Part shown: piece after piece, positions 8,864 to 60,002 of the stretch
Numbering within the stretch: position 1 is the stretch's first letter
Layout of the letters: each line of letters starts with the position of its first letter
Assembly (NCBI RefSeq): GCF_017348835.2
Contig: NZ_CP071375.1
DNA: 64,000 nucleotides
Source: Escherichia coli
GTDB lineage: Bacteria; Pseudomonadota; Gammaproteobacteria; Enterobacterales; Enterobacteriaceae
Direction: 5' to 3' (one strand)
Notes under the pieces: model-generated
Told to the model about the DNA's origin: nothing
Databases searched by the model: none
The model's input: only the letters and a program-made list of their open reading frames with translations
Position numbers and translations under genes: made by a program

Positions 8864-9604
<741 letters not shown>

Positions 9605-9613
9605 TAACATCCA

Positions 9614-9635
9614 GGCGGCGTCCGAAAGCGCCGCC
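9614..9635 (+). other. intercistronic stem-loop between pspA and pspB (GGCGGCG-loop-CGCCGCC), no T-tract
   Basis: Inverted repeat read directly in the sequence; may act as a partial terminator or mRNA stabiliser. Confidence 0.4.
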
Positions 9636-9657
9636 GCTCATCGTCTAAGGAGTACTT

Positions 9658-9882
9658 ATGAGCGCGCTATTTCTGGCTATTCCATTAACCATTTTTGTGC
9701 TGTTTGTTTTACCGATCTGGTTATGGCTGCATTACAGCAATCGTTCTGGTCGCAGTGAATTGTCGCAAAGTGAGCAGCAGCGATTAGCGCAACTGGCTGA
9801 TGAAGCAAAACGGATGCGCGAACGTATTCAGGCGCTGGAATCTATTCTTGATGCAGAACATCCGAACTGGAGGGATCGCTAA
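9658..9882 (+). CDS. pspB: phage shock protein B
   Basis: 74 aa, single transmembrane segment. Confidence 0.95.
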   Translation: MSALFLAIPLTIFVLFVLPIWLWLHYSNRSGRSELSQSEQQRLAQLADEAKRMRERIQALESILDAEHPNWRDR

Positions 9883-10241
9883 TGGCGGGCATTAATCTCA
9901 ATAAAAAATTATGGCGTATTCCACAGCAGGGCATGGTCCGTGGCGTCTGCGCCGGGATTGCCAACTATTTTGATGTACCGGTAAAACTGGTGCGTATCCT
10001 GGTGGTGCTGTCGATTTTCTTCGGTCTGGCGCTGTTTACCCTGGTTGCTTACATCATTTTGTCATTTGCGCTTGATCCAATGCCGGACAACATGGCCTTT
10101 GGTGAGCAGCTACCTTCCAGCAGTGAATTGCTGGATGAAGTCGACCGTGAACTGGCGGCAAGTGAAACGCGTTTACGCGAGATGGAACGTTATGTCACTT
10201 CCGATACATTCACGTTACGTAGCCGTTTCCGTCAACTGTGA
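9882..10241 (+). CDS. pspC: phage shock protein C
   Basis: 119 aa, start overlaps pspB stop. Confidence 0.95.
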
Positions 10242-10249
10242 GGAAAGTT

Positions 10250-10471
10250 ATGAATACTCGCTGGCAACAGGCCGGGCAAAAGGTGAAGCCTGGTTTCAAA
10301 TTAGCAGGCAAGCTGGTACTTCTTACCGCACTGCGCTATGGCCCGGCGGGTGTGGCGGGCTGGGCGATAAAATCAGTTGCTCGCCGACCGCTGAAAATGT
10401 TGCTGGCTGTGGCGCTGGAACCGCTGTTAAGTCGGGCTGCCAATAAACTGGCACAGCGTTATAAAAGGTGA
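10250..10471 (+). CDS. pspD: phage shock protein D
   Basis: 73 aa from [10 protein letters not shown]. Confidence 0.9.
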
Positions 10472-10545
10472 GGGGAGTTTCGCAAAAATTGTTAAATCTC
10501 AGGCCTATAATGGATGGCAATTTTCATCCATAGAAGGACGCTTAC

Positions 10546-10860
10546 ATGTTTAAAAAAGGCTTACTTGCTCTGGCACTGGTGTTTTCACTGCCCGTTTTCG
10601 CCGCTGAACACTGGATCGATGTTCGTGTTCCAGAGCAGTATCAGCAAGAGCACGTTCAGGGGGCCATCAATATTCCCCTGAAGGAAGTGAAAGAGCGCAT
10701 TGCCACCGCCGTTCCGGATAAAAACGACACCGTGAAAGTGTATTGCAATGCCGGACGCCAGTCCGGGCAGGCAAAAGAGATCCTTAGCGAGATGGGATAT
10801 ACCCACGTTGAGAACGCCGGTGGCCTGAAAGACATCGCAATGCCGAAGGTCAAAGGTTAA
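10546..10860 (+). CDS. pspE: thiosulfate sulfurtransferase (rhodanese), periplasmic
   Basis: 104 aa with signal peptide and rhodanese active-site region CNAGRQS. Confidence 0.95.
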   Translation: MFKKGLLALALVFSLPVFAAEHWIDVRVPEQYQQEHVQGAINIPLKEVKERIATAVPDKNDTVKVYCNAGRQSGQAKEILSEMGYTHVENAGGLKDIAMPKVKG

Positions 10861-11070: not shown

Positions 11071-12750
11071 ATGAAACAGAAAATTACGGATTACCTGGAC
11101 GAAATCTACGGTGGAACATTTACCGCAACTCATTTACAGAAACTTGTAACGCGTCTTGAGAGTGCGAAACGATTAATTACACAGCGACGTAAAAAACACT
11201 GGGATGAAAGTGACGTCGTGTTAATTACCTATGCCGATCAATTTCACAGTAATGATTTAAAACCACTACCCATATTTAATCAGTTCTACCATCAATGGCT
11301 GCAAAGCATTTTTTCACATGTTCATTTATTACCTTTTTACCCATGGTCATCTGATGATGGATTTTCGGTAATTGATTATCATCAGGTCTCCAGTGAAGCG
11401 GGGGAGTGGCAGGATATTCAGCAGCTCGGTGAATGCAGTCATTTAATGTTTGATTTTGTCTGCAACCATATGTCGGCAAAAAGTGAATGGTTTAAAAACT
11501 ATTTGCAACAGCTTCCGGGTTTTGAAGATTTCTTTATTGCGGTTGATCCGAAAACCGATCTCAGTGCCGTCACCCGTCCGCGTGCGTTACCGCTATTAAC
11601 GCCGTTTCAAATGGATGATAATTCCACGCGCCATTTATGGACCACCTTTAGCGACGATCAAATTGACCTCAATTACCGTAGCCCTGAAGTGTTGCTGGCG
11701 ATGGTGGATGTATTGCTGTGCTACCTGGAAAAGGGCGCAGAATATGTCCGTCTGGATGCCGTTGGCTTTATGTGGAAAGAGCCGGGAACAAGCTGCATCC
11801 ATCTGGAAAAAACACATCTGATTATCAAACTGTTACGGTCGATTATTGATGACATCGCGCCAGGTACGGTGATTATTACTGAGACGAATGTTCCGCATAA
11901 AGATAACATTGCTTACTTTGGCGAAGGCGATGACGAAGCGCATATGGTGTACCAGTTCTCGCTGCCGCCGCTGGTGTTACATGCGGTGCAAAAACAGAAC
12001 GTCGAGGCGCTGTGCCAGTGGGCGCAAAGTCTGAGCTTGCCCTCCGGTAAAACGACCTGGTTTAACTTCCTCGCCTCTCACGATGGCATCGGGCTGAACC
12101 CACTGCGGGGCTTGTTACCAGAAAGCGAAATATTAGCGCTGGTCGAGGCATTACAGCAGGAAGGTGCATTAGTAAACTGGAAAAATAATCCCGACGGTAC
12201 GCGCAGTCCCTATGAAATAAATGTCACCTATATGGATGCGTTAAGCCGCCGCGAGAGTAGCGATGAAGAACGTTGCGCCAGGTTTATCCTTGCCCATGCG
12301 ATTTTGTTAAGTTTCCCCGGTGTGCCAGCGATATATATTCAAAGTATTCTGGGCTCGCGTAATGATTACGCAGGTGTCGAAAAACTCGGATATAACCGTG
12401 CGATTAACCGTAAAAAATATCACAGTGAAGAGATAACACGAGAACTGAACGATGAAGCTACATTAAGGCATGCGGTATATCATGAGTTGTCGCGTTTAAT
12501 TACACTTCGTCGCAGCCATAACGAGTTTCATCCGGATAATAATTTTACCATCGATACGGTTAATTCATCCGTAATGCGTATTCAAAGAAGTAACGCTGAT
12601 GGTAATTGTCTGACTGGATTGTTTAATGTCAGTAAAAATATTCAGCATGTAAATATTACTGATCTGCATGGTCGGGATCTGATTAGTGAAGTTGATATAT
12701 TGGGTAATGAAATAACGCTGCGCCCCTGGCAGGTTATGTGGATTAAATAA
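11071..12750 (+). CDS. ycjM: glucosylglycerate phosphorylase (GH13_18 sucrose-phosphorylase-like)
   Basis: 559 aa from MKQKITDYLDEIYGG. Confidence 0.9.
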   Translation: MKQKITDYLDEIYGGTFTATHLQKLVTRLESAKRLITQRRKKHWDESDVVLITYADQFHSNDLKPLPIFNQFYHQWLQSIFSHVHLLPFYPWSSDDGFSVIDYHQVSSEAGEWQDIQQLGECSHLMFDFVCNHMSAKSEWFKNYLQQLPGFEDFFIAVDPKTDLSAVTRPRALPLLTPFQMDDNSTRHLWTTFSDDQIDLNYRSPEVLLAMVDVLLCYLEKGAEYVRLDAVGFMWKEPGTSCIHLEKTHLIIKLLRSIIDDIAPGTVIITETNVPHKDNIAYFGEGDDEAHMVYQFSLPPLVLHAVQKQNVEALCQWAQSLSLPSGKTTWFNFLASHDGIGLNPLRGLLPESEILALVEALQQEGALVNWKNNPDGTRSPYEINVTYMDALSRRESSDEERCARFILAHAILLSFPGVPAIYIQSILGSRNDYAGVEKLGYNRAINRKKYHSEEITRELNDEATLRHAVYHELSRLITLRRSHNEFHPDNNFTIDTVNSSVMRIQRSNADGNCLTGLFNVSKNIQHVNITDLHGRDLISEVDILGNEITLRPWQVMWIK

Positions 12751-12763
12751 AAAGGAACATCTC

Positions 12764-14056
12764 ATGATTAAATCAAAAATCGTGCTGTTATCAGCACTGG
12801 TTTCCTGCGCCCTGATTTCAGGCTGTAAAGAAGAAAATAAAACCCATGTATCCATCGAATTTATGCATTCTTCGGTGGAGCAGGAGCGTCAGGCAGTTAT
12901 CAGTAAATTGATTGCCCGTTTTGAAAAAGAAAACCCGGGCATCACCGTTAAACAAGTGCCAGTGGAAGAAGATGCCTATAACACCAAAGTCATCACCCTT
13001 TCACGTAGCGGCTCGCTGCCGGAAGTGATCGAAACCAGCCATGACTACGCCAAAGTTATGGACAAAGAGCAGCTTATCGATCGTAAAGCGGTTGCCACGG
13101 TCATCAGCAACGTTGGTGAAGGCGCGTTTTACGATGGCGTACTGCGTATTGTGCGCACCGAAGATGGGAGTGCCTGGACCGGTGTTCCTGTCAGCGCCTG
13201 GATTGGCGGCATCTGGTATCGCAAAGATGTGCTGGCAAAAGCCGGGCTGGAGGAGCCGAAAAACTGGCAGCAGCTGCTGGACGTTGCACAGAAACTGAAT
13301 GACCCGGCGAATAAAAAATACGGTATTGCGCTGCCTACAGCAGAAAGCGTGTTGACGGAACAATCCTTCTCCCAGTTTGCGTTATCCAACCAGGCCAACG
13401 TCTTTAACTCTGAAGGCAAAATCACCCTTGATACACCAGAGATGATGCAGGCGCTGACTTATTACCGCGACCTTGCCGCCAACACCATGCCGGGTTCTAA
13501 CGATATCATGGAAGTGAAAGACGCCTTTATGAACGGCACCGCGCCGATGGCGATTTACTCCACCTATATCCTTCCGGCTGTAATTAAAGAAGGCGACCCG
13601 AAAAACGTCGGTTTCGTGGTGCCAACCGAGAAAAACTCTGCGGTCTACGGCATGTTGACCTCGCTGACTATTACCGCCGGGCAAAAGACCGAAGAGACGG
13701 AAGCGGCGGAAAAATTTGTCACCTTTATGGAACAGGCGGACAACATTGCCGACTGGGTGATGATGTCGCCAGGCGCGGCGCTGCCAGTGAACAAAGCGGT
13801 GGTGACTACCGCCACCTGGAAAGACAACGACGTTATTAAGGCGCTGGGTGAACTACCGAATCAGCTAATCGGTGAACTGCCTAATATTCAGGTCTTTGGC
13901 GCAGTAGGGGATAAAAACTTTACCCGCATGGGCGATGTGACGGGTTCTGGTGTGGTGAGCTCCATGGTGCATAACGTCACCGTGGGTAAAGCCGATCTCC
14001 CTGGCACGCTACAAGCGAGCCAGAAAAAGTTGGATGAACTGATCGAACAGCACTAA
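12764..14056 (+). CDS. ycjN: ABC transporter periplasmic sugar-binding protein
   Basis: 430 aa with lipoprotein-type signal peptide. Confidence 0.9.
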   Translation: MIKSKIVLLSALVSCALISGCKEENKTHVSIEFMHSSVEQERQAVISKLIARFEKENPGITVKQVPVEEDAYNTKVITLSRSGSLPEVIETSHDYAKVMDKEQLIDRKAVATVISNVGEGAFYDGVLRIVRTEDGSAWTGVPVSAWIGGIWYRKDVLAKAGLEEPKNWQQLLDVAQKLNDPANKKYGIALPTAESVLTEQSFSQFALSNQANVFNSEGKITLDTPEMMQALTYYRDLAANTMPGSNDIMEVKDAFMNGTAPMAIYSTYILPAVIKEGDPKNVGFVVPTEKNSAVYGMLTSLTITAGQKTEETEAAEKFVTFMEQADNIADWVMMSPGAALPVNKAVVTTATWKDNDVIKALGELPNQLIGELPNIQVFGAVGDKNFTRMGDVTGSGVVSSMVHNVTVGKADLPGTLQASQKKLDELIEQH

Positions 14057-14076
14057 ACCCAGGACAGGAATCCGCA

Positions 14077-14958
14077 ATGAACAGGCTTTTTTCAGGTCGT
14101 TCCGATATGCCGTTTGCGCTGCTGCTTCTCGCGCCCAGCTTATTACTGCTGGGCGGTCTGGTGGCGTGGCCGATGGTGTCGAATATCGAAATCAGTTTTT
14201 TACGTCTGCCGCTCAATCCCAACATCGAGTCAACGTTTGTTGGGGTGAGTAACTATGTGCGCATTCTCTCCGATCCCGGCTTCTGGCACTCGCTGTGGAT
14301 GACGGTCTGGTATACGGCGCTGGTGGTGGCGGGCAGCACCGTGCTCGGGCTGGCCGTGGCGATGTTTTTCAACCGCGAGTTCCGCCTGCGCAAAACCGCG
14401 CGTTCGCTGGTGATCCTCTCCTACGTAACGCCGTCCATTTCGCTGGTGTTTGCCTGGAAATACATGTTCAACAACGGCTACGGCATTGTGAACTACCTCG
14501 GCGTCGATCTTCTGCATCTCTATGAGCAGGCACCGCTGTGGTTCGATAATCCGGGCAGTAGCTTTGTGCTGGTGGTGCTGTTCGCCATCTGGCGCTACTT
14601 CCCGTATGCCTTTATCTCGTTTCTGGCGATTTTGCAGACCATCGACAAATCGCTGTACGAAGCGGCAGAGATGGATGGCGCTAATGCCTGGCAGCGGTTT
14701 CGCATCGTCACGCTGCCCGCAATTATGCCGGTCCTGGCGACGGTGGTGACTCTGCGCACCATCTGGATGTTTTACATGTTCGCTGATGTTTATCTGCTGA
14801 CAACCAAGGTCGATATTCTCGGTGTCTATCTCTACAAAACCGCCTTTGCCTTTAATGACTTAGGGAAAGCGGCGGCGATCTCGGTGGTGCTCTTCATCAT
14901 TATTTTCGCTGTCATTCTGCTGACCAGGAAACGGGTGAACCTCAATGGCAACAAATAA
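14077..14958 (+). CDS. ycjO: ABC transporter permease
   Basis: 293 aa, MalF-type permease. Confidence 0.9.
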   Translation: MNRLFSGRSDMPFALLLLAPSLLLLGGLVAWPMVSNIEISFLRLPLNPNIESTFVGVSNYVRILSDPGFWHSLWMTVWYTALVVAGSTVLGLAVAMFFNREFRLRKTARSLVILSYVTPSISLVFAWKYMFNNGYGIVNYLGVDLLHLYEQAPLWFDNPGSSFVLVVLFAIWRYFPYAFISFLAILQTIDKSLYEAAEMDGANAWQRFRIVTLPAIMPVLATVVTLRTIWMFYMFADVYLLTTKVDILGVYLYKTAFAFNDLGKAAAISVVLFIIIFAVILLTRKRVNLNGNK

Positions 14959-15787
14959 ACGCACACTCAGTCGTATCGGATTTTACTGCGGGCTGGCGCT
15001 GTTTCTCATCATCACGCTGTTTCCGTTTTTTGTGATGCTGATGACCTCGTTCAAGAGCGCAAAAGAGGCGATCTCGCTGCATCCTACGCTGCTGCCGCAA
15101 CAGTGGACGCTGGAGCATTACGTCGACATTTTTAACCCGGTGATATTCCCGTTTGTCGACTATTTCCGTAACAGCATGGTGGTGTCGGTAGTTTCATCCG
15201 TGGTGGCGGTATTTCTCGGCATTCTCGGGGCTTACGCGCTTTCCCGCCTGCGCTTTAAAGGGCGGATGACCATCAACGCCAGCTTTTACACGGTATACAT
15301 GTTCTCCGGCATTTTGCTGGTGGTGCCGCTGTTCAAAATCATCACCGCGCTTGGCATTTACGACACCGAGATGGCGCTGATCATTACCATGGTGACGCAA
15401 ACCCTGCCCACCGCCGTGTTTATGCTGAAAAGCTACTTCGACACCATCCCTGATGAGATCGAAGAAGCGGCGATGATGGATGGCCTCAACCGTCTGCAAA
15501 TTATCTTCCGTATCACCGTGCCCCTGGCGATGTCCGGGCTGATATCGGTGTTCGTCTACTGCTTTATGGTGGCGTGGAACGACTATCTGTTTGCGTCGAT
15601 TTTCCTCTCCAGCGCCAGCAATTTCACCTTACCAGTGGGCCTGAACGCGCTGTTCAGTACGCCTGATTACATCTGGGGACGCATGATGGCGGCCTCGCTG
15701 GTGACCGCATTGCCGGTGGTGATTATGTATGCGCTTTCGGAACGTTTTATTAAGAGTGGTTTGACCGCCGGTGGCGTGAAGGGCTAA
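14945..15787 (+). CDS. ycjP: ABC transporter permease
   Basis: 280 aa, MalG-type permease; start overlaps ycjO. Confidence 0.9.
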   Translation: MATNKRTLSRIGFYCGLALFLIITLFPFFVMLMTSFKSAKEAISLHPTLLPQQWTLEHYVDIFNPVIFPFVDYFRNSMVVSVVSSVVAVFLGILGAYALSRLRFKGRMTINASFYTVYMFSGILLVVPLFKIITALGIYDTEMALIITMVTQTLPTAVFMLKSYFDTIPDEIEEAAMMDGLNRLQIIFRITVPLAMSGLISVFVYCFMVAWNDYLFASIFLSSASNFTLPVGLNALFSTPDYIWGRMMAASLVTALPVVIMYALSERFIKSGLTAGGVKG

Positions 15788-15817
15788 AGCGGCCAGTTTA
15801 TTGACAAGGAGTTTTAA

Positions 15818-16813
15818 ATGAAAAAGTTAGTAGCCACGGCACCGCGCGTAGCGGCGCTGGTTGAGTATGAAGACAGGGCGATTTTAGCCAATGAAGTGAA
15901 GATCCGCGTGCGTTTCGGCGCGCCGAAGCACGGGACGGAAGTGGTCGATTTCCGCGCCGCCAGCCCGTTTATCGATGAAGACTTTAACGGTGAATGGCAG
16001 ATGTTCACCCCGCGCCCGGCAGATGCGCCGCGCGGCATTGAGTTTGGCAAATTCCAGCTTGGCAACATGGTGGTTGGCGACATTATCGAATGCGGCAGCG
16101 CCGTTACCGATTACGCGGTGGGCGACAGCGTATGCGGCTACGGCCCGCTTTCCGAAACGGTCATCATTAACGCGGTGAATAACTACAAGCTGCGCAAAAT
16201 GCCGAAAGGCAGTTCGTGGAAAAACGCCGTCTGCTACGACCCGGCGCAGTTTGCCATGAGCGGCGTGCGCGATGCCAACGTGCGCGTAGGGGATTTTGTG
16301 GTGGTGGTAGGGCTTGGCGCGATTGGTCAAATTGCCATCCAACTGGCGAAACGCGCTGGCGCGTCTGTGGTGATTGGCGTCGATCCTATCGCCCATCGCT
16401 GTGATATTGCCCGTCGCCACGGCGCGGATTTCTGCCTTAACCCCATCGGCACTGACGTAGGGAAAGAGATCAAAACGCTGACCGGCAAGCAGGGTGCCGA
16501 TGTGATTATCGAAACCAGCGGCTACGCCGACGCGCTGCAATCGGCACTGCGCGGCCTGGCTTACGGCGGCACCATCTCCTATGTCGCGTTTGCCAAACCG
16601 TTTGCCGAAGGTTTCAACCTCGGACGCGAAGCGCATTTCAATAACGCCAAAATTGTCTTCTCCCGCGCGTGCAGCGAACCGAACCCGGATTATCCGCGCT
16701 GGAGCCGTAAGCGTATTGAAGAAACCTGCTGGGAACTGCTGATGAACGGTTATCTCAATTGTGAAGATTTAATCGACCCGGTGGTGACCTTTGCTAACAG
16801 CCCGGAAAGCTAA
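15818..16813 (+). CDS. ycjQ: zinc-type dehydrogenase YcjQ (D-guloside 3-dehydrogenase), ending 19 codons early at an in-frame TAA
   Basis: 331-aa ORF; the same frame continues in-frame after the TAA at 16811-16813 for 18 codons (MQYVDQHPEQSIKMGVTF) to a second stop at 16868-16870, giving the 350 aa I recall for the K-12 protein. Confidence 0.85.
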   Translation: MKKLVATAPRVAALVEYEDRAILANEVKIRVRFGAPKHGTEVVDFRAASPFIDEDFNGEWQMFTPRPADAPRGIEFGKFQLGNMVVGDIIECGSAVTDYAVGDSVCGYGPLSETVIINAVNNYKLRKMPKGSSWKNAVCYDPAQFAMSGVRDANVRVGDFVVVVGLGAIGQIAIQLAKRAGASVVIGVDPIAHRCDIARRHGADFCLNPIGTDVGKEIKTLTGKQGADVIIETSGYADALQSALRGLAYGGTISYVAFAKPFAEGFNLGREAHFNNAKIVFSRACSEPNPDYPRWSRKRIEETCWELLMNGYLNCEDLIDPVVTFANSPES

Positions 16814-16888
16814 ATGCAGTACGTTGACCAGCATCCGGAACAGAGCATCAAAATGGGCGTTACGTTTTAATTCAAAGGAATGAAAAAA

Positions 16889-17677
16889 ATGAAAATCGGC
16901 ACACAGAATCAGGCGTTCTTTCCGGAAAACATTCTAGAGAAATTTCGTTATATCAAAGAGATGGGCTTCGATGGTTTTGAAATCGACGGCAAACTGCTGG
17001 TCAACAACATCGAAGAAGTGAAAGCGGCGATCAAAGAAACTGGTTTACCGGTGACCACCGCCTGCGGTGGCTATAACGGCTGGATTGGCGACTTTATCGA
17101 AGAGCGTCGTCTTAATGGCTTAAAGCAGATAGAGCGCATTCTCGAAGCGCTGGCAGAAGTGGGCGGTAAAGGTATCGTCGTTCCGGCAGCGTGGGGCATG
17201 TTTACCTTCCGCTTACCGCCGATGACTTCACCGCGCAGCCTGGACGGCGACCGTAAAATGGTGAGCGATTCCCTGCGCGTACTGGAACAGGTAGCCGCGC
17301 GTACCGGAACCGTGGTGTATCTCGAACCGTTAAACCGTTATCAGGATCACATGATCAACACCCTCGCCGATGCCCGCCGTTACATCGTCGAAAACGATCT
17401 TAAACATGTGCAGATTATCGGCGATTTCTATCACATGAATATCGAAGAAGATAACCTGGCGCAGGCGCTGCATGACAACCGCGACCTGCTCGGTCATGTG
17501 CATATTGCCGATAACCATCGTTATCAGCCGGGCAGCGGCACCCTGGATTTCCACGCGCTGTTTGAACAACTGCGCGCCGATAATTATCAGGGCTATGTGG
17601 TGTATGAAGGGCGCATTCGGGCAGAAGATCCTGCCCAGGCGTACCGTGATTCTTTGGCCTGGTTGCGTACCTGCTAA
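16889..17677 (+). CDS. ycjR: sugar epimerase, xylose isomerase-like TIM barrel (3-dehydro-D-guloside 4-epimerase)
   Basis: 262 aa from MKIGTQNQAFF. Confidence 0.9.
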   Translation: MKIGTQNQAFFPENILEKFRYIKEMGFDGFEIDGKLLVNNIEEVKAAIKETGLPVTTACGGYNGWIGDFIEERRLNGLKQIERILEALAEVGGKGIVVPAAWGMFTFRLPPMTSPRSLDGDRKMVSDSLRVLEQVAARTGTVVYLEPLNRYQDHMINTLADARRYIVENDLKHVQIIGDFYHMNIEEDNLAQALHDNRDLLGHVHIADNHRYQPGSGTLDFHALFEQLRADNYQGYVVYEGRIRAEDPAQAYRDSLAWLRTC

Positions 17678-17686
17678 GAGGTCTTT

Positions 17687-18742
17687 GTGAAAAGTGCAAT
17701 GACAAGCTCTCCGCTGCGGGTCGCGATCATAGGCGCGGGCCAGGTGGCGGATAAAGTTCATGCTTCGTACTACTGCACCCGCAACGATCTGGAACTGGTG
17801 GCTGTCTGTGACAGCCGCCTTTCCCAGGCGCAGGCGCTGGCAGATAAATACGGTAATGCATCCGTGTGGGACGATCCGCAGGCCATGCTGCTGGCGGTGA
17901 AACCTGACGTGGTTAGCGTCTGCTCACCTAACCGTTTTCATTACGAACATACCCTGATGGCACTGGAAGCGGGCTGCCATGTGATGTGCGAAAAACCGCC
18001 CGCCATGACGCCAGAACAGGCGCGGGAAATGTGCGATATCGCGCGCAAACAGGGCAAGGTGCTGGCCTACGACTTTCACCATCGTTTTGCGCTCGATACG
18101 CAACAGCTGCGTGAACAGGTGACCAACGGCGTTTTGGGAGAGATTTACGTTACCACCGCCCGCGCCCTGCGTCGCTGCGGCGTTCCCGGCTGGGGTGTCT
18201 TTACCAATAAAGAACTGCAGGGTGGTGGCCCGCTGATCGACATCGGCATTCATATGCTGGATGCTGCAATGTATGTGCTGGGCTTTCCGGCGGTGAAAAG
18301 CGTGAATGCGCATAGTTTTCAAAAGATCGGCACGCAAAAGAGCTGTGGTCAATTTGGCGAGTGGGATCCGGCAACTTACAGCGTCGAAGATTCGCTGTTT
18401 GGCACCATTGAATTTCATAACGGCGGCATTCTGTGGCTGGAAACGTCATTTGCACTCAACATCCGCGAACAGTCGATTATGAACGTCAGCTTTTGCGGTG
18501 ATAAAGCCGGTGCGACGCTGTTTCCAGCACATATCTACACCGATAACAACGGTGAATTAATGACGCTGATGCAACGGGAAATGGCAGACGACAACCGCCA
18601 TTTGCGCAGCATGGAAGCCTTTATCAATCACGTACAGGGCAAGCCCGTGATGATAGCCGATGCCGAGCAGGGGTACATCATCCAGCAACTGGTGGCGGCG
18701 TTGTATCAATCCGCAGAAACAGGGACGCGTGTGGAATTATGA
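17687..18742 (+). CDS. ycjS: Gfo/Idh/MocA-family NAD-dependent oxidoreductase (D-glucoside 3-dehydrogenase)
   Basis: 351 aa, GTG start, Rossmann motif IIGAGQVA. Confidence 0.9.
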   Translation: MKSAMTSSPLRVAIIGAGQVADKVHASYYCTRNDLELVAVCDSRLSQAQALADKYGNASVWDDPQAMLLAVKPDVVSVCSPNRFHYEHTLMALEAGCHVMCEKPPAMTPEQAREMCDIARKQGKVLAYDFHHRFALDTQQLREQVTNGVLGEIYVTTARALRRCGVPGWGVFTNKELQGGGPLIDIGIHMLDAAMYVLGFPAVKSVNAHSFQKIGTQKSCGQFGEWDPATYSVEDSLFGTIEFHNGGILWLETSFALNIREQSIMNVSFCGDKAGATLFPAHIYTDNNGELMTLMQREMADDNRHLRSMEAFINHVQGKPVMIADAEQGYIIQQLVAALYQSAETGTRVEL

Positions 18743-21006
18743 CCAGGCCAGTAACGTTATCAGAACCCCATTTCAGCCAGCATACCCTGAACAAGTATGC
18801 ATCACTGATGGCGCAGGGGAACGGCTATCTTGGGCTTCGCGCCAGCCATGAAGAAGATTACACGCGCCAGACGCGCGGCATGTATCTGGCGGGGCTGTAT
18901 CATCGGGCGGGTAAAGGTGAAATCAACGAACTGGTGAACCTGCCCGATGTGGTGGGGATGGAGATTGCCATAAATGGTGAGGTTTTCTCATTATCCCGCG
19001 AAGCCTGGCAGCGTGAGCTTGACTTTGCCAGTGGCGAATTACGCCGCAGCGTTGTCTGGCGTACCAGCAACGGCACAGGTTACACCATCGCCAGCCGTCG
19101 CTTTGTTTCGGCAGACCAACTGCCGCTCATTGCGCTGGAAATCACTATTACTCCACTGGACGCCGACGCGTCAGTGCTGATTTCAACAGGCATTGACGCC
19201 ACGCAAACCAATCACGGTCGCCAACATTTCGACGAAACCCAGGTGCGGGTGTTTGGTCAGCATCTGATGCAGGGGATCTACACCACCCAGGATGGACGCA
19301 GTGATGTGGCCATCAGCTGTTGCTGTAAGGTGAGCGGTGATGTGCAGCAATGCTATACCGCCAAAGAGCGCCGTTTGCTGCAACATACCAGCGCGCAACT
19401 TCACGCAGGCGAAACGCTGACGCTGCAAAAACTGGTGTGGATCGACTGGCGGGATGACAGGCAAGCTGCTTTAGACGAGTGGGGCAGTGCGTCGCTTCGC
19501 CAGCTTGAAATGTGTGCGCAGCAGAGTTACGACCAACTTCTTGCAGCATCAACAGAAAACTGGCGTCAGTGGTGGCAGAAACGTCGTATCACGGTAAACG
19601 GCGGCGATGCGCACGATCAGCAAGCGTTAGATTATGCGCTTTATCATCTGCGCATCATGACGCCTGCTCACGACGAGCGCAGCAGTATTGCGGCAAAAGG
19701 CTTAACCGGAGAAGGCTACAAAGGCCACGTTTTCTGGGATACAGAAGTATTTTTGCTACCGTTTCATCTGTTTAGCGATCCGACGGTTGCCCGAAGTTTA
19801 CTGCGTTATCGCTGGCACAACTTGCCAGGCGCGCAGGAGAAAGCGCGACGCAACGGCTGGCAGGGCGCGCTATTTCCGTGGGAGAGCGCACGCAGTGGTG
19901 AAGAAGAGACGCCGGAATTTGCCGCCATTAACATTCGCACCGGGCTGCGGCAAAAAGTGGCCTCGGCGCAGGCTGAACATCATCTGGTCGCCGATATCGC
20001 CTGGGCGGTTATTCAATACTGGCAGACAACGGGGGATGAAAGTTTCATTGCTCATGAAGGCATAGCGCTACTTCTGGAGAGCGCAAAGTTCTGGATTAGC
20101 CGCGCGGTAAGGGTTAACGACCGTCTGGAAATTCATGATGTTATTGGGCCAGACGAATATACCGAACATGTCAATAATAACGCCTTCACCAGCTATATGG
20201 CGTATTACAACGTCCAGCAGGCGCTGAACATCGCTCGTCAATTTGGCTGTAGCGACGTTGCGTTTATCCATCGCGCCGAAATGTTCCTCAAAGAGTTGTG
20301 GCTGCCAGAAACTCAGCCCGACGGCGTTTTGCCGCAGGATGATTCGTTTATGGCTAAGCCGGCGATTAATCTGGCGAAATACAAAGCGGCGGCGGGGAAG
20401 CAAACCATTCTGCTGGATTATTCACGCGCAGAAGTGAACGAGATGCAGATCCTCAAACAAGCTGATGTGGTGATGCTCAATTACATGCTGCCGGAGCAGT
20501 TCTCAGCGGCATCGTGTCTTGCCAATCTGCAATTTTATGAACCGCGCACTATTCACGACTCGTCATTAAGTAAAGCAATCCACGGCATTGTTGCCGCACG
20601 CTGTGGCCTGCTGACCCAAAGTTATCAGTTCTGGCGCGAGGGGACTGAAATCGATCTTGGTGCTGATCCGCATAGTTGTGATGATGGTATCCATGCTGCC
20701 GCAACTGGCGCTATCTGGCTGGGGGCGATTCAGGGTTTTGCCGGGGTGAGCGTGCGTGACGGTGAATTGCATCTAAATCCGGCGTTACCTGAGCAGTGGC
20801 AACAGTTGTCTTTCCCTCTGTTCTGGCAGGGCTGCGAATTACAGGTCACGCTCGACGCGCAGCGTATTGCGATTCGAACTTCTGCGCCCGTTTCACTGCG
20901 TTTGAACGGCCAGCTTATATCCGTGGCTGAAAAATCTGTTTTCTGTTTGGGTGATTATATTTTGCCCTTCAATGGGACCGCTACCACGCATCAGGAGGAT
21001 GAATGA
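18739..21006 (+). CDS. ycjT: kojibiose phosphorylase (GH65)
   Basis: 755 aa. Confidence 0.9.
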
Positions 21007-21662
21007 AACTGCAAGGGGTAATTTTCGATCTGGATGGTGTAATCACCGATACCGCGCATCTGCATTTCCAGGCGTGGCAGCAGATTGCCGCTGAAATTGG
21101 CATCAGCATTGATGCGCAGTTTAACGAATCCCTAAAAGGGATTAGCCGCGATGAGTCTCTGCGGCGCATTCTGCAATACGGGGGCAAAGAGGGCGACTTT
21201 AACTCGCAGGAGCGGGCGCAACTGGCGTATCGCAAAAATCTGCTCTACGTCCACTCACTGCGCGAACTGACGGTTAATGCCGTTCTGCCGGGGATCCGGC
21301 CTTTGCTGGCAGATCTCCGCGCACAGCAGATCCCGGTAGGGCTGGCTTCCGTCTCCCTGAATGCGCCGACGATTTTAGCGGCGCTGGAGCTGCGCGAGTT
21401 TTTCACCTTCTGCGCGGATGCTTCCCAACTTAAAAACTCGAAACCGGATCCGGAAATCTTTCTCGCTGCTTGTGCCGGGCTGGGCGTGCCGCCGCAGGCA
21501 TGTATCGGCATTGAAGATGCGCAGGCGGGCATTGACGCCATTAACGCCAGCGGTATGCGCTCGGTGGGGATCGGCGCGGGCTTAACCGGGGCGCAATTAC
21601 TATTGCCTTCAACGGACTCCCTGACCTGGTCGCGGTTATCGGCCTTCTGGCAAAACGTATAG
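21003..21662 (+). CDS. ycjU: beta-phosphoglucomutase (HAD superfamily)
   Basis: 219 aa with HAD motif I ([10 protein letters not shown]). Confidence 0.9.
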
Positions 21663-21675: not shown

Positions 21676-22758
21676 ATGGCTCAGCTTTCGTTACAACATA
21701 TTCAAAAAATCTACGATAACCAGGTGCATGTGGTGAAGGACTTCAACCTGGAAATTGCCGATAAAGAGTTCATCGTATTTGTCGGCCCGTCGGGCTGCGG
21801 TAAATCGACCACCCTGCGCATGATTGCCGGGCTTGAGGAGATCAGCGGCGGCGATCTGTTGATCGACGGCAAACGAATGAATGACGTTCCAGCCAAAGCA
21901 CGCAATATCGCGATGGTGTTCCAGAACTACGCGTTGTATCCGCATATGACGGTCTACGACAACATGGCGTTTGGCCTGAAGATGCAAAAAATCGCCAAAG
22001 AGGTGATTGATGAGCGGGTGAACTGGGCGGCGCAAATTCTCGGCCTGCGTGAGTACCTGAAACGCAAGCCGGGCGCGCTTTCCGGCGGGCAACGCCAGCG
22101 TGTGGCGCTCGGGCGGGCGATTGTGCGCGAAGCGGGCGTGTTTTTAATGGATGAACCGCTCTCTAACCTTGATGCCAAGCTGCGCGTACAAATGCGCGCA
22201 GAGATCAGCAAGCTGCATCAGAAACTGAACACCACCATGATCTACGTGACCCACGATCAGACCGAAGCGATGACCATGGCGACGCGGATTGTGATTATGA
22301 AAGACGGGATTGTTCAGCAAGTGGGTGCGCCGAAAACCGTTTATAACCAACCCGCGAATATGTTTGTTGCCGGATTTATTGGATCACCAGCGATGAATTT
22401 TATTCGCGGCACGATCGATGGCGATAAATTCGTTACGGAAACGCTTAAATTAACCATTCCCGAAGAGAAATTAGCGGTTCTGAAAACACAGGAAAGTTTG
22501 CATAAGCCCATCGTGATGGGAATACGCCCGGAAGATATTCATCCGGACGCGCAAGAGGAAAATAACATTTCCGCCAAAATTAGCGTGGCAGAATTAACCG
22601 GTGCGGAATTTATGCTCTACACCACGGTTGGGGGGCACGAGTTAGTGGTCCGTGCTGGTGCGTTAAATGATTATCATGCAGGAGAAAATATCACCATTCA
22701 TTTTGATATGACGAAATGTCATTTCTTTGATGCAGAAACGGAAATAGCAATTCGCTAA
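21676..22758 (+). CDS. ycjV: ABC transporter ATP-binding protein (MalK-like), intact
   Basis: 360 aa with Walker A (GPSGCGKST), signature LSGGQRQR and Walker B (FLMDEP). Confidence 0.85.
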   Translation: MAQLSLQHIQKIYDNQVHVVKDFNLEIADKEFIVFVGPSGCGKSTTLRMIAGLEEISGGDLLIDGKRMNDVPAKARNIAMVFQNYALYPHMTVYDNMAFGLKMQKIAKEVIDERVNWAAQILGLREYLKRKPGALSGGQRQRVALGRAIVREAGVFLMDEPLSNLDAKLRVQMRAEISKLHQKLNTTMIYVTHDQTEAMTMATRIVIMKDGIVQQVGAPKTVYNQPANMFVAGFIGSPAMNFIRGTIDGDKFVTETLKLTIPEEKLAVLKTQESLHKPIVMGIRPEDIHPDAQEENNISAKISVAELTGAEFMLYTTVGGHELVVRAGALNDYHAGENITIHFDMTKCHFFDAETEIAIR

Positions 22759-23818: not shown

Positions 23819-24817
23819 TTATTTCAGCGTCATATGCGTGGCAACGGTAATATTCTGTGGTGACGGTTTTCCAGAAATTAAGCGGAATAATAACTCGCAG
23901 CTTTGTTGACCTAACTCCTGCGTCGGAACATCGATGCCGCCCGGTGCAGGCGTTAAAATAAATGACAGCGTTTCATTGCTATAACCCACCACCGCTAACT
24001 GCTGCGGAATAGCAATATTTTTCTCTGCTGCCGCACGATAAATGCTCATTAATTTCAGGCTGTCAGTGGCAAACACCGCCTCAGGCAACGGTGACTGGCT
24101 TAATAATTCTCTCGCGGCTTGCAGTGCTGTTTCATGGGTATAACCGCCGTCAACAATCCATTCATCACGCACTGCAATATTATGCGCGGACAGACTTTGC
24201 TTATAACCATTTACCCGATCCACTGAAACATGGACATCAAGCGGTGCATGAAGGCAGGCAATGTTTTTATGTCCATTCTCAATTAATGCATCGGTTAGCG
24301 CAATGCTGTCACCAAAATTATCGGTATCGACAGAATAAACATGGGCATATTGACCTTCAACTTTGCCAATCACCACGACAGGAATATCGTATTTATCAAG
24401 TTGGGCAAAAAATGACTCATCCGCTGGCGAACTTAGCATAATAATGCCTTTAATCATTTTCTGCTTAATTGTGCTTTCACATTTTTGTAAGTCTTCTGCC
24501 AGGTTGTGCGACGTTTGTAATATCACGTCGAAACCTTCTTCTTCCGCTTTGGCGGTGATGGCATGTAGAACTTCTGAGAAAAACGGATTACCCGCCGTAG
24601 TTTTGGTCGAACGGGTAGAAATCACCATAATGGCATCAAAACCCGAAGAGGTCAGCGCGCGGGCCAGCTTGTTTGGCTGATACTGTAATTCTTCAATGGC
24701 CCGTAACACTTTTTCGCGCGCTTCCGGGGAGATATTGGTTTGCTTATTCAGCACGCGTGATACGGTGGATTTTGATACGCCTGCAACCCTGGCAATATCA
24801 TAAATAGTAGGGGACAT
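23819..24817 (-). CDS. ycjW: LacI-family transcriptional regulator
   Basis: 332 aa with N-terminal HTH ([19 protein letters not shown]). Confidence 0.9.
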
Positions 24818-32399: not shown

Positions 32400-33330
32400 T
32401 TATCCCAGATGGGTGTTGAAAAAAGGAATAACTTTTTCCAGCGCCTCCTGAACTGCTTCCGGTTTGTCATACAGTTCATAATGTGAGAAATCGGGTAACG
32501 AAACTAACTGACGATCCTGCGAAACCATCGCCCGGCCATAGACTTCCAGTCCATCACGATAAGCACCGAAGGCACCGACTTTTTCACCAACTACTACCAT
32601 CACCGGCTGAGTCAGTAACACTTCAGTAAATGCGAAGGCATCCCAGGCCAGCGTTTTCTGTGCATGTGAGAACAACATTTTTGTCGCACCTCCCGGTTGT
32701 TGCCCGCGTGGTGTTTTATAGTAGTCAGTTGCTTCATAAACATCGCGTTCGGTCAGTCCATGGGCTTTTGCTGCATCCAGGCTGGCGGGAAGTAATTCGT
32801 TGATCTGTAATTCTCCACCACGAGCCTCTTTGGTTCGTTGCGACGCCATTGCATTCAATGCGCCAATCGGATCGTAATTGCTGAAACCTTCCCGAAAAAG
32901 ACGCCCGATATTAACACCCGTAATACTCACTACAGCTTTAATTCGTTTTTCTGTCAGCGCGGCATTAATGGCATAGCCCCCCCCCACACACACCCAGCAC
33001 GCCAATGCGTTCAGCATCAACATATGGCAGAGTTACTGCATAATCGATAACACGGCTAATATCCTCTACGCGCTGTGTCGGATCTTCTATCCAACGAGGC
33101 TCCCCACCAGATTCTCCCTGGAAACTGGCGTCATAAGCGAGAACGACATAGCCTTTTTCAGCCAATGCCTTGCCATAGATATTGCCAGACGTCTGCTCCT
33201 TACAACTGCCAAAAGGATGGACGCTGATAATCGCCGGATACTGTTTTGACTCATCAAAATTTGGTGGAAACTGAATATTGGCAGCAATATGCCAGGCCAT
33301 ATCACTATTGCGGATTTGAATATGTTTCAT
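32400..33330 (-). pseudogene. dienelactone-hydrolase-like alpha/beta hydrolase, paralog of ycjY, disrupted by a frameshift in a C9 homopolymer
   Basis: Two overlapping ORFs (32965-33330 and 32400-33023) each cover half of the fold; frames switch in the C9 run at 32977-32985 (G9 on the coding strand) at the GVCGGGG-Y nucleophile motif; paralog ycjY reads GICAGAGY there. Confidence 0.75.
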
Positions 33331-34250
33331 TACAGAGTTTCCTCAAAGAACGGAGCTAATACTGAAATTGCTTCAGCCACATAGGCTTTGCCGTCATAAA
33401 GATCCATATGGTTTGCGCCTTCAACAATGTGATAGCGTTTATCCTGGCTTGATGCCCGATCGTACAGATCGTCACTCATCCATTTGCTCCCTGCCTGGCT
33501 GCCCGCCACAATCTGCATCGGCTGAGTCAGGTACACTTCCGCCATATGGTAAGCATCATAGGTAATAATCTGGTTAAGGCTGCGCAAAGTAGCGTAACCC
33601 GGTGCTGTTGGATACTGCGCGCGAGGGGTGTGGTAATACTCCCAGGCCTGACGCAGTTCTTCGTTCGGCGCATCGGACTCCTTCATTGGTGCCAGTGGCA
33701 TAATGGCGTATTCTCCGCTGCTAATATCGCTGGTTCTGGCGTTTGAACCCGCTTCAACGTATGGCAGGGCATCAATAGATTTCACATTGTTTTCCCAACC
33801 ATTACGGAACATCGAACCAATATTGACCGCACTAACGGTACCGATGGCCTTGATGCGGCGATCCTGAATTGCAGCATTGGCTGTATATCCTGCACCGGCA
33901 CAAATTCCCATCGCACCAATTCGGGTATTGTCGACATAAGAAAGCGTTGTCAGGTAATCAATCACGGCACTGACGTCTTCAGTACGAATGTATGGGTTTT
34001 CTAACTGACGCGGCTCGCCGCCGCTTTCACCTTGATAAGATGCGTCATAAGCAATAGTGACAAATCCCTTTTCCGCCAGTTTTTCGGCATAGGTTCCGGC
34101 CGTTTGCTCTTTAACGCCCCCACCAGGGTGAGATACCACAATTGCCGGATACTGACGGGTTTCATCAAATTTTGGAGGGAAATAGATCACTGCAGACAAA
34201 GAGATGGTTGGATTATTGCTGTTAGTGAAGCTGACTTTATTATTCATCAT
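33330..34250 (-). CDS. ycjY: alpha/beta hydrolase (dienelactone hydrolase / S9-like non-peptidase homolog)
   Basis: 306 aa from MMNNKVSFTNSNN; stop overlaps the start of the downstream paralog (TAATG). Confidence 0.8.
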   Translation of the reverse strand: MMNNKVSFTNSNNPTISLSAVIYFPPKFDETRQYPAIVVSHPGGGVKEQTAGTYAEKLAEKGFVTIAYDASYQGESGGEPRQLENPYIRTEDVSAVIDYLTTLSYVDNTRIGAMGICAGAGYTANAAIQDRRIKAIGTVSAVNIGSMFRNGWENNVKSIDALPYVEAGSNARTSDISSGEYAIMPLAPMKESDAPNEELRQAWEYYHTPRAQYPTAPGYATLRSLNQIITYDAYHMAEVYLTQPMQIVAGSQAGSKWMSDDLYDRASSQDKRYHIVEGANHMDLYDGKAYVAEAISVLAPFFEETL

Positions 34251-46847: not shown

Positions 46848-46854
46848 AACTGCA

Positions 46855-46949
46855 TAAAAAAATAGAGTCTGTCGACATCCGCCAGACTCTACAGTACACA
46901 CAGCAGTGCATCCGCGTCTTAAATCCGGCATTGTCTCCTCTGCGCCGGT
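46855..46949 (-). ncRNA. mcaS: small regulatory RNA McaS (IsrA)
   Basis: Minus-strand sequence ACCGGCGCAGAGGAGACAATGCCGGATTTAAGACGCGGATGCACTGCTGTGTGTACTGTAGAGTCTGGCGGATGTCGACAGACTCTATTTTTTT recognised; ends in a terminator hairpin plus U-run. Confidence 0.85.
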
Positions 46950-50326: not shown

Positions 50327-50448
50327 GCAGGTGAATGCAACGTCAAGCGATGGGCGTTGCGCTCCATATTGTCTTACTTCCTTTTTTGAATTACTGCATA
50401 GCACAATTGATTCGTACGACGCCGACTTTGATGAGTCGGCTTTTTTTT
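50327..50448 (+). ncRNA. fnrS: FNR-regulated small RNA FnrS
   Basis: Sequence GCAGGTGAATGCAACGTCAAGCGATGGGCGTTGCGCTCCATATTGTC...GACGCCGACTTTGATGAGTCGGCTTTTTTTT recognised, with intrinsic terminator. Confidence 0.85.
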
Positions 50449-52210: not shown

Positions 52211-53146
52211 TTATTTCACTTCAACCACATTCAGCCGTAACTCATCCAACTGATTTTCATCTTCTTCTGGCTGCCAGCCCGCCGGTTGTAGTGGGATCTC
52301 TTCGCGATCAAACGCCAGATCACCCCCGTTAACCACTTCAGAACCGTGGGTGATGCCTTTGAAATCGAACAGGTTGGTATCGCACAGATGCGACGGCACC
52401 ACATTCTGCATCGCGCTGAACATCGTCTCGATACGCCCCGGATAACGTTTATCCCAGTCACGCAACATGTCAGCAATCACCTGACGTTGCAGGTTAGGCT
52501 GTGAACCGCACAGGTTGCACGGAATAATCGGGAACGCTTTTGCATCGGCAAATCGCTGAATATCTTTCTCGCGGCAGTAGGCCAGCGGACGAATAACGAT
52601 ATGTTTGCCATCATCGCTCATCAGTTTCGGAGGCATACCTTTCATCTTGCCGCCGTAGAACATATTTAAGAACAACGTTTGCAGGATATCGTCACGATGG
52701 TGGCCCAACGCGATCTTCGTCGCCCCCAGTTCCGTTGCGGTACGATAAAGAATACCGCGACGTAGCCGAGAACACAGTGAGCAAGTGGTTTTGCCCTCTG
52801 GAATCTTCTCTTTCACGATACCGTAAGTGTTCTCTTCAACAATCTTGTACTCAACGCCCAGCTTTTCAAGATACTCGGGCAGAACGTGTTCCGGGAAGCC
52901 CGGTTGCTTTTGATCGAGGTTAACAGCCACCAGCGAAAAATTGATTGGCGCGCTTTGCTGCAAATTGCGCAGAATCTCCAGCATGGTATAGCTGTCTTTA
53001 CCCCCGGAGAGGCAAACCATGATGCGATCGCCTTCTTCAATCATATTGAAGTCAGCAATGGCTTCGCCCACGTTACGACGCAGACGTTTTTGTAATTTGT
53101 TCAGGTTGTATTGTTCTTTCTTTGTAATTTGTTGATTTTCTTGCAT
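52211..53146 (-). CDS. ttcA: tRNA-cytidine(32) 2-sulfurtransferase
   Basis: 311 aa with PP-loop SGGKDS and CxxC motifs; 5' end abuts the prophage integrase. Confidence 0.95.
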
Positions 53147-53197
53147 TATTTCAGTTCTCTGGTACTAAATGGGGCAAATTGGGGGCAAACTTTGCAA

Positions 53198-54433
53198 CTA
53201 CGATAACCGCGCATTCAACATGGCTATCTGTTCGTCGTTCATGTCATCAATCCACATACCGTAAATTTCATACACCATCTGCGCAGTTTCATGCCCCATT
53301 TGGCTGGCTATAAATGCCGGGTTCGCTCCTGCCGTCAACAGCCAGCAGGCAAAAGTATGTCGCGTATGGTACGGATTACGGCGGCGAATACCAGCACGTT
53401 TTACTGCTGCATTCCACCTTGCCCCCAAACTGCTTACCGAGTAATAAGGTTTTTGTTTTCCGTTACACACCCTGGGCATGAAAACAAAATGCAGTTTTTG
53501 CTTTTCGGTTCTGCCGTACTCCCGATGATAAAAGGTGATTTCGCTTTTGCGATGATGCCCGGTCAGTTTGTATTGCTCCTTCAGTGCTTCAAGAGCAGGC
53601 TGCAGTAGTGTTACTGTTCGGATCCCGGCATTTGTTTTTGGGGGACCGAACATATCAAGTATCGTCAGGTTTCTTCTGACATTCACTATTCCCTTTTCGA
53701 GATCCACATCCTCCCACGCCAGAGCTGCCAGTTCCCCGTGACGAAGTCCTGAGTAAACGGCAAATTTCCACAAGTTCTGGCTCTGTCCTTTTTCACTTTC
53801 CATTAATGCATTGAATTCTGTTTTAGATAACGGATCAGGCTTTATTCTGTTTCGCTGTAATTTTTTTACTCCTTCAAATGGTTTGGTTGATATAAATCCC
53901 GACTGATACGCAAAACGCAACAGCGAACAGAGCAGGGCGATATAGTTATCAACTGTGCGCACGGTTCTTCCTTTTTTGTTGGATCTTGGATTATCCAGGT
54001 AAAGCGTTTCTCCATGCAGCAGTTCATTCCGGTAGTTTAAGATATCGCTATAACGAATATGTGATATCGGGGTACTTTCACAAATTATTATTCTGAGTGT
54101 TTTTAATTGTGATTTCGTTTTCTTCATTGTGTTTGTTGTTAACTCTGTCTCTTTAATTTTTGTCCAGATATCACAAAGCTCTCCGAACGTTTTTATGACT
54201 CTCGTTGTCACCATTTTTGCCCCAGTGCTGGACTGGGGAAAACGTCTTAAATACTCAAATTCACCGGAGTTTATTTCATGAACTATCAGCGCTCTTAAAT
54301 TTCCGGCCTTTTTAATATTACTGTTTGTAATCTCCCAGCCTTTTAATGTTTCCCGACATCGTTTTCCTCGAAACATGAACCAGATGCGAATGTATCTACC
54401 TCTAATCTCGACACCTGTTGGTAATTTAGACAT
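53198..54433 (-). CDS. intR: Rac-type prophage integrase (tyrosine recombinase)
   Basis: 411 aa, sequence recognised; ends 51 bp from the ttcA start. Confidence 0.9.
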   Translation of the reverse strand: MSKLPTGVEIRGRYIRIWFMFRGKRCRETLKGWEITNSNIKKAGNLRALIVHEINSGEFEYLRRFPQSSTGAKMVTTRVIKTFGELCDIWTKIKETELTTNTMKKTKSQLKTLRIIICESTPISHIRYSDILNYRNELLHGETLYLDNPRSNKKGRTVRTVDNYIALLCSLLRFAYQSGFISTKPFEGVKKLQRNRIKPDPLSKTEFNALMESEKGQSQNLWKFAVYSGLRHGELAALAWEDVDLEKGIVNVRRNLTILDMFGPPKTNAGIRTVTLLQPALEALKEQYKLTGHHRKSEITFYHREYGRTEKQKLHFVFMPRVCNGKQKPYYSVSSLGARWNAAVKRAGIRRRNPYHTRHTFACWLLTAGANPAFIASQMGHETAQMVYEIYGMWIDDMNDEQIAMLNARLS

Positions 54434-54434
54434 A

Positions 54435-54650
54435 TCATGAGTCTTTGATAAACTGATTTATCTTTGGATAGTTGTACCAGATAATCCCTCGTTTGCTGTC
54501 TGGCTTACCTAAAGGAGATACTCGTTTGAAGTGGAAGCCCTCCACCCAACAGTTCTGGCGGTATGCTTCAATTTGTCTGGCCCCCAGACCAGTGCGAAGC
54601 ATCAGGCCGTATTCAACCATCCACTCTTCATTAAAGATTACTTGTGCCAT
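54435..54650 (-). CDS. xisR: prophage excisionase-like protein
   Basis: 71 aa from [15 protein letters not shown], immediately upstream of intR. Confidence 0.75.
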
Positions 54651-54728
54651 CGCATCACCTCTGGCCGGCGCCAATGTTAGACTGAAATTGACGCCCGATG
54701 TTGATTATTAATAATCAGCTATGAAGTT

Positions 54729-54938
54729 TTAATTTGAATACAATGCAATTCTCGAGGACTGAAGTTTCTCGCAATTAAAATTTATCAGTTTTACTTTCTG
54801 CTCTCTGGAAACGCCTGCTTCTTTTTTACCTGAGAGCATTTTTTCGCATTCTGATTTCGTTAGTTTAGATTTTGAATATCTTGTCCAGTTAGTAGGAGTG
54901 CCACCTTCCTTTTCAATAGTGGCGGTAATTTTATACAT
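54729..54938 (-). CDS. ydaC: Rac prophage small protein YdaC (DUF1187)
   Basis: 69 aa from MYKITATIEKEGG. Confidence 0.75.
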   Translation of the reverse strand: MYKITATIEKEGGTPTNWTRYSKSKLTKSECEKMLSGKKEAGVSREQKVKLINFNCEKLQSSRIALYSN

Positions 54939-55009
54939 GAACACCTCCATTATTATTTCCAGTGGTTTGAACCGCCCCGGGTTTCCTGGAGAGTGTTTTA
55001 TCTGTGAAC

Positions 55010-56223: not shown

Positions 56224-56277
56224 CCTGTTTACCTCTTTCTCAGGGAGTTTAGTCTCCAGGATTTCCGGGGCGGTTCA

Positions 56278-56438: not shown

Positions 56439-56494
56439 AATTTTTCTCATAAAAAATATTTCAAGTTGGCGGTGCATTACACCGCCAGGCTGAA

Positions 56495-58436: not shown

Positions 58437-58474
58437 ACAATCGCGAGTCTGGATCCCCTTACCTGGCTGACACC

Positions 58475-59227: not shown

Positions 59228-59233
59228 CTGACC

Positions 59234-59980: not shown

Positions 59981-60002
59981 TTTTTACCGGGAGAAAAATT
60001 TA

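Follow-up and report, generated by a model that had tools for sequence, protein, structure and literature searches.

In the 64-kb stretch of Escherichia coli DNA analysed here (64,000 nucleotides of contig NZ_CP071375.1, hereafter the window), the gene ycjQ is cut short by an in-frame stop at codon 332, and we consider it probable that this stop, a recent TAC to TAA mutation in one lineage, impairs the encoded D-guloside 3-dehydrogenase and marks the early decay of a dispensable operon. The case for impairment is built on sequence comparison and a predicted structure. The truncation itself is a real nonsense polymorphism; it is an ordinary example of a known process and raises no new biological question. 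The features of the gene are as follows.

15818..16813, plus strand: truncated ycjQ coding sequence, 331 codons and the premature TAA (ORF list, translation, PE164 and F2_81 annotation; product WP_089637433.1)
16811..16813, plus strand: premature ochre TAA at codon 332; ancestral Tyr codon TAC, mutated base 16813 C>A (sequence, alignments, nearest intact alleles)
16814..16870, plus strand: orphaned 3' remnant of ycjQ, comprising 18 sense codons MQYVDQHPEQSIKMGVTF and the ancestral TAA at 16868-16870 (translation, K-12 identity)

According to the ORF listing and its translation, the gene runs on the plus strand from the ATG at 15818 to the TAA at 16811-16813 and comprises 331 codons. Past this stop, the frame stays open for 18 sense codons (ATG CAG TAC GTT GAC CAG CAT CCG GAA CAG AGC ATC AAA ATG GGC GTT ACG TTT) up to a second TAA at 16868-16870; the whole frame amounts to 331 + 1 + 18 = 350 codons, and a straight translation across the stop reads ...VTFANSPES*MQYVDQHPEQSIKMGVTF*. 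Such a run is unremarkable by itself, as 18 sense codons follow any stop with a chance of (61/64)^18, or about 0.42, and homology is therefore needed to make the remnant meaningful. All 18 residues of MQYVDQHPEQSIKMGVTF are identical to residues 333-350 of K-12 YcjQ, and only two base differences, both synonymous, separate the two stretches. In an alignment of 3'-end DNA, codon 332 reads TAT in K-12 and AH04, TAC in O157:H7 TR01 and 2018-05-2CC, and TAA in the window, PE164 and F2_81. An in-frame premature stop relative to the orthologues, followed by a recognisable downstream remnant with 18 of 18 codons conserved, is a pattern expected of a pseudogene, as is the identifiable intact ancestral allele described below. 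The sequence-only reading had taken the gene for ycjQ, given a length of 350 aa for the K-12 protein and proposed a nonsense change at codon 332 (Tyr) with loss of the last 19 residues. Annotation and synteny within the ycjMNOPQRSTUV-ompG cluster agree with the first of these points, K-12 b1313 is indeed 1053 bp long and encodes 350 aa, and alignment with the reference alleles confirms both the change and the loss.

The gene order matches that of K-12: ycjQ is flanked by ycjP and ycjR, in a cluster that adjoins the repressor gene ycjW; the operon and its repression by YcjW have been described previously (PMC6599011).

11071..23708, plus strand: ycjMNOPQRSTUV-ompG cluster, in which the genes other than ycjQ, including ycjV, are annotated as intact (PE164 and K-12 annotation)
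16875..16879, plus strand: Shine-Dalgarno-like AAGGA of ycjR, just past the ancestral ycjQ stop, with an estimated anti-Shine-Dalgarno duplex of -5.6 kcal/mol for the ATG at 16889 (sequence)
16889..17677, plus strand: ycjR, 3-dehydro-D-guloside 4-epimerase, the next gene of the operon (PE164 and K-12 annotation)
21676..22758, plus strand: ycjV, ABC transporter ATPase of 1083 bp, intact here and a pseudogene (ycjV/ymjB) in K-12 (PE164 and K-12 annotation)
23819..24817, minus strand: ycjW, LacI-type repressor of the operon (annotation, PMC6599011)

The K-12 annotation names ycjQ (b1313) D-guloside 3-dehydrogenase. YcjQ of K-12 is the only form for which the NAD-dependent interconversion of D-gulosides and 3-keto-D-gulosides is known (PMC13053599, citing Mukherjee et al., 2019), and PMC13053599 and PMC11543891 cite the same work for the activities of YcjQ, YcjR and YcjS. 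Across the gene, the window differs from K-12 at 45 bases (95.7% nucleotide identity), and only D95A and Q130K, in addition to the stop, alter the protein; this excess of silent changes indicates purifying selection on ycjQ until the stop arose. The truncated product shares a 90% protein cluster with K-12 YcjQ (MDR052 'YCJQ'), of which it is evidently the orthologue, with high identity, the ADH_zinc_N domain, the position between ycjP and ycjR and only two differences in residues 1-331. In contrast to the K-12 protein, it lacks residues 332-350 owing to the TAC to TAA change, and it departs from the length of 349-353 aa and the C-terminal YM.YVD..P..SIKMG of the YcjQ orthologues by stopping at residue 331.

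The surrounding cluster is itself unusual in its distance from K-12. The stretch from ycjM to ycjU (11071-21662) shows 94.5-97.8% DNA identity to K-12, with ycjS at 98.6%, and the adjacent psp genes (pspA-E, 8936-10860) are 98.2-99.6% identical. At an identity of at least 99%, the ycjQ haplotype is found in only two complete genomes, and the next best match stands at 97.3%. These values suggest that the ycj cluster is a markedly divergent haplotype, which may reflect an old allelic polymorphism or recombination.

The ancestral state of the codon was approached with a repaired query, that is, the YcjQ of the window with Tyr332 and the tail restored to give 350 aa. Exact matches to this protein occur in 281 index blocks. 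Seven loci were read, and the four with the closest intact alleles (L009, L011, L014 and L015) are separated from the window by two of the 1053 bases of ycjQ: position 891 of the gene (window 16708), where the T/C difference is synonymous, and position 996 (window 16813), where the difference is A/C. All four carry TAC. Across ycjN-ycjS, the intact haplotypes and the window differ at about 4-8 sites. As the nearest intact alleles read TAC and stand two bases away, the mutation is best described as C>A at 16813, turning TAC into TAA, recently and on a circulating intact haplotype. The sequence-only reading had favoured a change from TAT to TAA, which a comparison with K-12 alone would also suggest; this origin is ruled out by the TAC of the nearest intact alleles. 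The intact sister allele (L011, GCA_036177435.1; L015, GCA_040837345.1) is identical to the window in residues 1-331 and in the sequence of the tail, and differs in having TAC at codon 332, which gives the full 350 aa, and in a 17-SNP patch in ycjT. These 17 SNPs fall within about 600 bp (19212-19806) of a region that is otherwise near-identical to L009, L011, L014 and L015, and the cluster looks like a small recombination patch.

The TAA allele recurs in other assemblies. The pig isolate PE164 from China (NZ_CP114128.1) is 100% identical to the first 25 kb of the window and differs from the full 64 kb at only three positions (34459, 55127 and 55211), all synonymous, of which one lies in pgrR and two in the orfB of an IS3 transposase. 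The window is therefore either a further assembly version of PE164 or closely related to it. F2_81, a pig isolate from Australia, has a ycjQ identical to that of the window with the same TAA. The protein cluster table lists the exact 331-aa protein (WP_089637433.1) on 34 contigs, and 59 index blocks contain it; TAA was found in all seven further loci that were read (L016-L022; draft or Logan assemblies). For six of these, 0-2 SNPs per 4 kb separate the locus from the window; the remaining one, L017, was left out of the SNP scoring because a deletion in ycjO shifts the comparison. The 18-codon remnant is unchanged in every TAA assembly read. The allele is fixed in one clonal lineage that includes PE164, F2_81 and their relatives.

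Lesions of the ycj operon are also seen in other lineages. In strain 2018-05-2CC, ycjM contains an IS1, ycjT is partial and ycjV has an internal stop. L009 (GCA_012250845.1), which belongs to the sister haplotype with intact ycjQ, has an 8-bp insertion in ycjS (window ~18001) and lacks a called ycjS at that point; here the same pathway of three enzymes has been hit independently. Within the clone with truncated ycjQ, L017 (GCA_050373355.1) has an additional 36-bp in-frame deletion in ycjO, which gives 281 aa vs 293 aa. This deletion falls at window ~14413-14438, with about 10 bp that align on both flanks. Together with ycjV/ymjB of K-12, the lesions of 2018-05-2CC and L009 resemble the ycjQ stop as lineage-specific inactivations of a dispensable carbohydrate cluster. 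They differ in affecting other genes by other mutations, and those annotated by PGAP are flagged as pseudogenes, whereas the ycjQ truncation (5.4% of length) is not. Among complete E. coli genomes, 4985 of 5426 have a match to the 1053-bp ycjQ stretch and 441 have none, which, together with the independent ycj lesions across lineages, shows that the operon is clearly dispensable and prone to erosion.

The lost tail is highly conserved. A database search returned full-length YcjQ orthologues of 349-353 aa from Salmonella, Enterobacter, Cronobacter, Vibrio, Listeria, Bacillus, Paenibacillus and others, and those from Listeria, Bacillus, Paenibacillus and Vibrio show 72-79% identity, with values of 73-76% for Listeria and Bacillus. 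In the alignment, Y332, M333, V336, D337, P340, S343, I344, K345, M346 and G347 are each conserved in at least 90% of the sequences; 10 of the 19 lost residues therefore reach this level from Proteobacteria to Firmicutes, with the tail reading YMxYVDxxPxxSIKMG. Reference proteins ending at ...ANSPES would have spoken against a truncation, and all full-length orthologues, out to Firmicutes, continue with YM.YVD..P..SIKMG. None of the 25 other aligned orthologues ends early at the C-terminus. Some database entries are short (a 331-aa protein of Citrobacter cronae P0044 and 318-326-aa proteins of E. coli, Citrobacter and Cronobacter), and these were ruled out as independent C-terminal truncations, as they keep the tail and their gaps are internal.

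In the AlphaFold2 model of full-length K-12 YcjQ, residues 322-324 form a strand, residues 325-338 a helix and residues 347-349 the last strand, with a mean pLDDT of 76 and values of about 73-88 over the last 40 residues (medium confidence). On this model, the stop halves the last helix and removes the terminal beta-strand. The Pfam domain ADH_zinc_N (PF00107), at residues 168-289 (E=1.8e-26), is untouched by the truncation. YcjQ has the Rossmann NAD(P)-binding domain with GxGxxG expected of a member of the MDR superfamily, and its GLGAIG is invariant in the alignment. The model also superposes on full-length MDR alcohol dehydrogenases of 346-352 aa with a TM of about 0.7, an overall fold shared with the canonical horse-liver ADH, FrmA and Tdh. 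In MDR enzymes, the chain that follows the Rossmann domain doubles back and completes the catalytic domain; in the horse-liver enzyme, the NAD pyrophosphate is contacted by Arg369, which lies in the C-terminal ...SIRTILTF. Alignments of YcjQ to such proteins stop short of the tail: full-length phmmer and profile alignments to solved MDR structures end near residue 260, hhalign comparisons of the YcjQ family with FrmA and Tdh of E. coli end near residues 251-263, and a search with the C-terminal tail of YcjQ alone returned chance matches only (E above 0.4). The C-termini were matched by eye from their ends (FrmA ...GKSIRTVIRY, Tdh ...GQSGKVILSWD, YcjQ ...EQSIKMGVTF), and this end-anchored visual match gives a common pattern of strand, helix, S-I/G-[R/K] and final strand in FrmA, Tdh and YcjQ. 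As a lead drawn from this visual match, K345 of YcjQ may be the counterpart of Arg369.

The proposed sequence of events would begin with C>A at 16813, turning Tyr332 into an ochre codon on an intact haplotype that circulates in many E. coli strains, and with fixation of this change in one clone. Translation would then end 19 codons early and yield a 331-aa YcjQ that keeps the whole Rossmann/NAD domain and lacks, according to the model, the final beta-strand and the latter half of the helix before it, which together hold the most conserved C-terminal motif of the family. Judging from the conservation of the tail and the predicted structure, this protein may be misfolded, unstable or catalytically impaired, in which case the first step of the YcjQ-YcjR-YcjS route from guloside to glucoside would be lost while the rest of the operon stays intact. 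As the tail is near-invariant and supplies one half of the final helix, together with the closing strand, in the AlphaFold2 model, loss or destabilisation of the dehydrogenase is likely. The premature stop also widens the untranslated gap between ycjQ and ycjR from 18 nt to 75 nt, and it is possible that weaker coupling across this gap modestly lowers ycjR translation as a secondary effect. No terminator-like or promoter-like sites were found in 16600-17100. Similarly, no known RNA families were found near the ycjQ stop; the four Rfam matches in the window lie elsewhere.

Several observations temper the view that YcjQ is impaired. The Pfam NAD-binding domain at 168-289 is intact, and in PGAP the 331-aa product passes as an ordinary CDS. 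The part that the tail plays in the structure is taken from a medium-confidence AlphaFold2 model and general knowledge of the MDR fold, and the alignments to solved MDR structures, FrmA and Tdh end before the C-terminus. Moreover, the allele occurs in many assemblies and so is not strongly deleterious, which fits a dispensable pathway and equally a retained activity. The latter would apply if the truncation were neutral, with a 331-aa YcjQ that folds and works, a dispensable tail and merely a shorter allele. We regard this as unlikely, though worth serious consideration, given that 94.6% of the length and the Rossmann domain are kept, that the allele has lasted in many assemblies, with some microdiversity among them, and that the gene is annotated as an intact CDS. 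What weighs against it is the tail itself: 10 of its 19 residues are at least 90% conserved from Proteobacteria to Firmicutes, 0 of 25 other aligned orthologues end early at the C-terminus, and the cut is predicted to fall in mid-helix and to remove the last beta-strand. The loss of YcjQ could instead have been adaptive, through selection against the guloside branch in the pig gut and not through neutral decay. The clone is widespread, and the two complete genomes that carry the allele are those of pig isolates from different continents. However, a single mutational origin is seen, with no convergence on ycjQ, the host data are limited to these two genomes, and the other operon lesions in ycjM, ycjO, ycjS, ycjT and ycjV are a better fit to relaxed selection; adaptive loss is accordingly judged improbable.

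The junction TAAATG, in which the ATG at 16814 directly abuts the new stop, invites a further reading, in which re-initiation at this ATG yields an 18-aa tail peptide that complements the body of the enzyme, or in which the ochre codon is read through. This reading is extremely improbable. The in-frame ATG is simply the next residue (Met333), and the absence of further changes in the remnant, in the assemblies read, would be expected if the tail were still translated; yet Met333 is ancestral and conserved, which means that the ATG predates the mutation and its position is a coincidence, and the unchanged remnant is accounted for by how young the mutation is, with only 0-2 SNPs in the whole 4-kb region. 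Furthermore, the Shine-Dalgarno-like match upstream of the ATG is weak (about -3.5 kcal/mol), non-covalent rescue by an 18-aa peptide is speculative, and TAA, the stop codon at which termination in E. coli is most efficient, disfavours read-through. It is likewise highly improbable that the TAA-ATG junction (16811-16816) marks a natural split gene whose chains reassemble, or that the truncated body is active alone. Were either true, the lineage would be a natural experiment on the MDR C-terminal strand, and an active truncated body would mean that the family can do without its most conserved C-terminal motif. Finally, the chance that the TAA is a sequencing or assembly artefact, with C or T as the true base and ycjQ intact, is close to nil. 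A single-base difference is the type of change that an error could give, and nothing more specific points that way. The same base is present in two complete genomes from different continents and in seven further assemblies, and it is a substitution within GCTAAATG and not a homopolymer-length error. With more than nine independent assemblies in agreement, sequencing error is ruled out as the source of the TAA; TAT at this codon, which the sequence-only reading had named as grounds for dropping its claim, was not encountered among the independent assemblies of this lineage, all of which have TAA. The preferred reading is a recent and probably impairing loss of the YcjQ tail.

The main value of this result lies in annotation and in the prediction of strain phenotypes. 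PGAP lists WP_089637433.1 as an intact 'zinc-dependent alcohol dehydrogenase / D-guloside 3-dehydrogenase' with no pseudogene flag; a C-terminal truncation of 5% evades this flag, and the protein is therefore propagated under its full functional name. A metabolic model of PE164, F2_81 or one of their relatives would be wrong to include an intact YcjQRS route. In the literature searched, no mention of the ycjQ truncation was found. The Y332* allele adds one more case of lineage-specific erosion in the poorly understood ycj operon and, paired with the sister haplotype 2 nt away, provides natural material on the role of the conserved tail.

The names given to YcjQ also deserve attention. The YCJQ family (MDR052) has been placed among the NAD-preferring MDRs that lack both zinc sites (PMC2976758). 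In the hhalign alignment, LGNMVVG of YcjQ stands opposite LGHEGAG of FrmA, so that the catalytic zinc ligands His-Glu are replaced by Asn-Met. This change from GHE, the zinc-ligand motif of the canonical MDR alcohol dehydrogenases, to GNM lies at YcjQ residues 81-87 (window ~16058-16078). For YcjQ, the labels 'zinc-dependent' and 'zinc-binding alcohol dehydrogenase' used in RefSeq are thus probably incorrect.

Elsewhere in the window, an alpha/beta hydrolase gene at 32400-33330 on the minus strand is a frameshifted pseudogene in the PE164 annotation and adjoins an intact paralogue at 33330-34250. A Rac-like prophage region at ~53040-64000 contains intR, xisR, rcbA, ralR, recT and a truncated nuclease gene. 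Here, rcbA is separated from ralR by an IS3-family element (55010-56223), and the anti-phage genes iteA/iteS at 61247-64000 run past the end of the window. The four Rfam matches, all of gathering level, are the following.

46854-46949, minus strand: McaS
50327-50444, plus strand: FnrS
54754-54932, plus strand: RalA antitoxin sRNA
55826-55942, minus strand: ALIL frameshift pseudoknot of the IS3 element

All four are expected in a K-12-like region.
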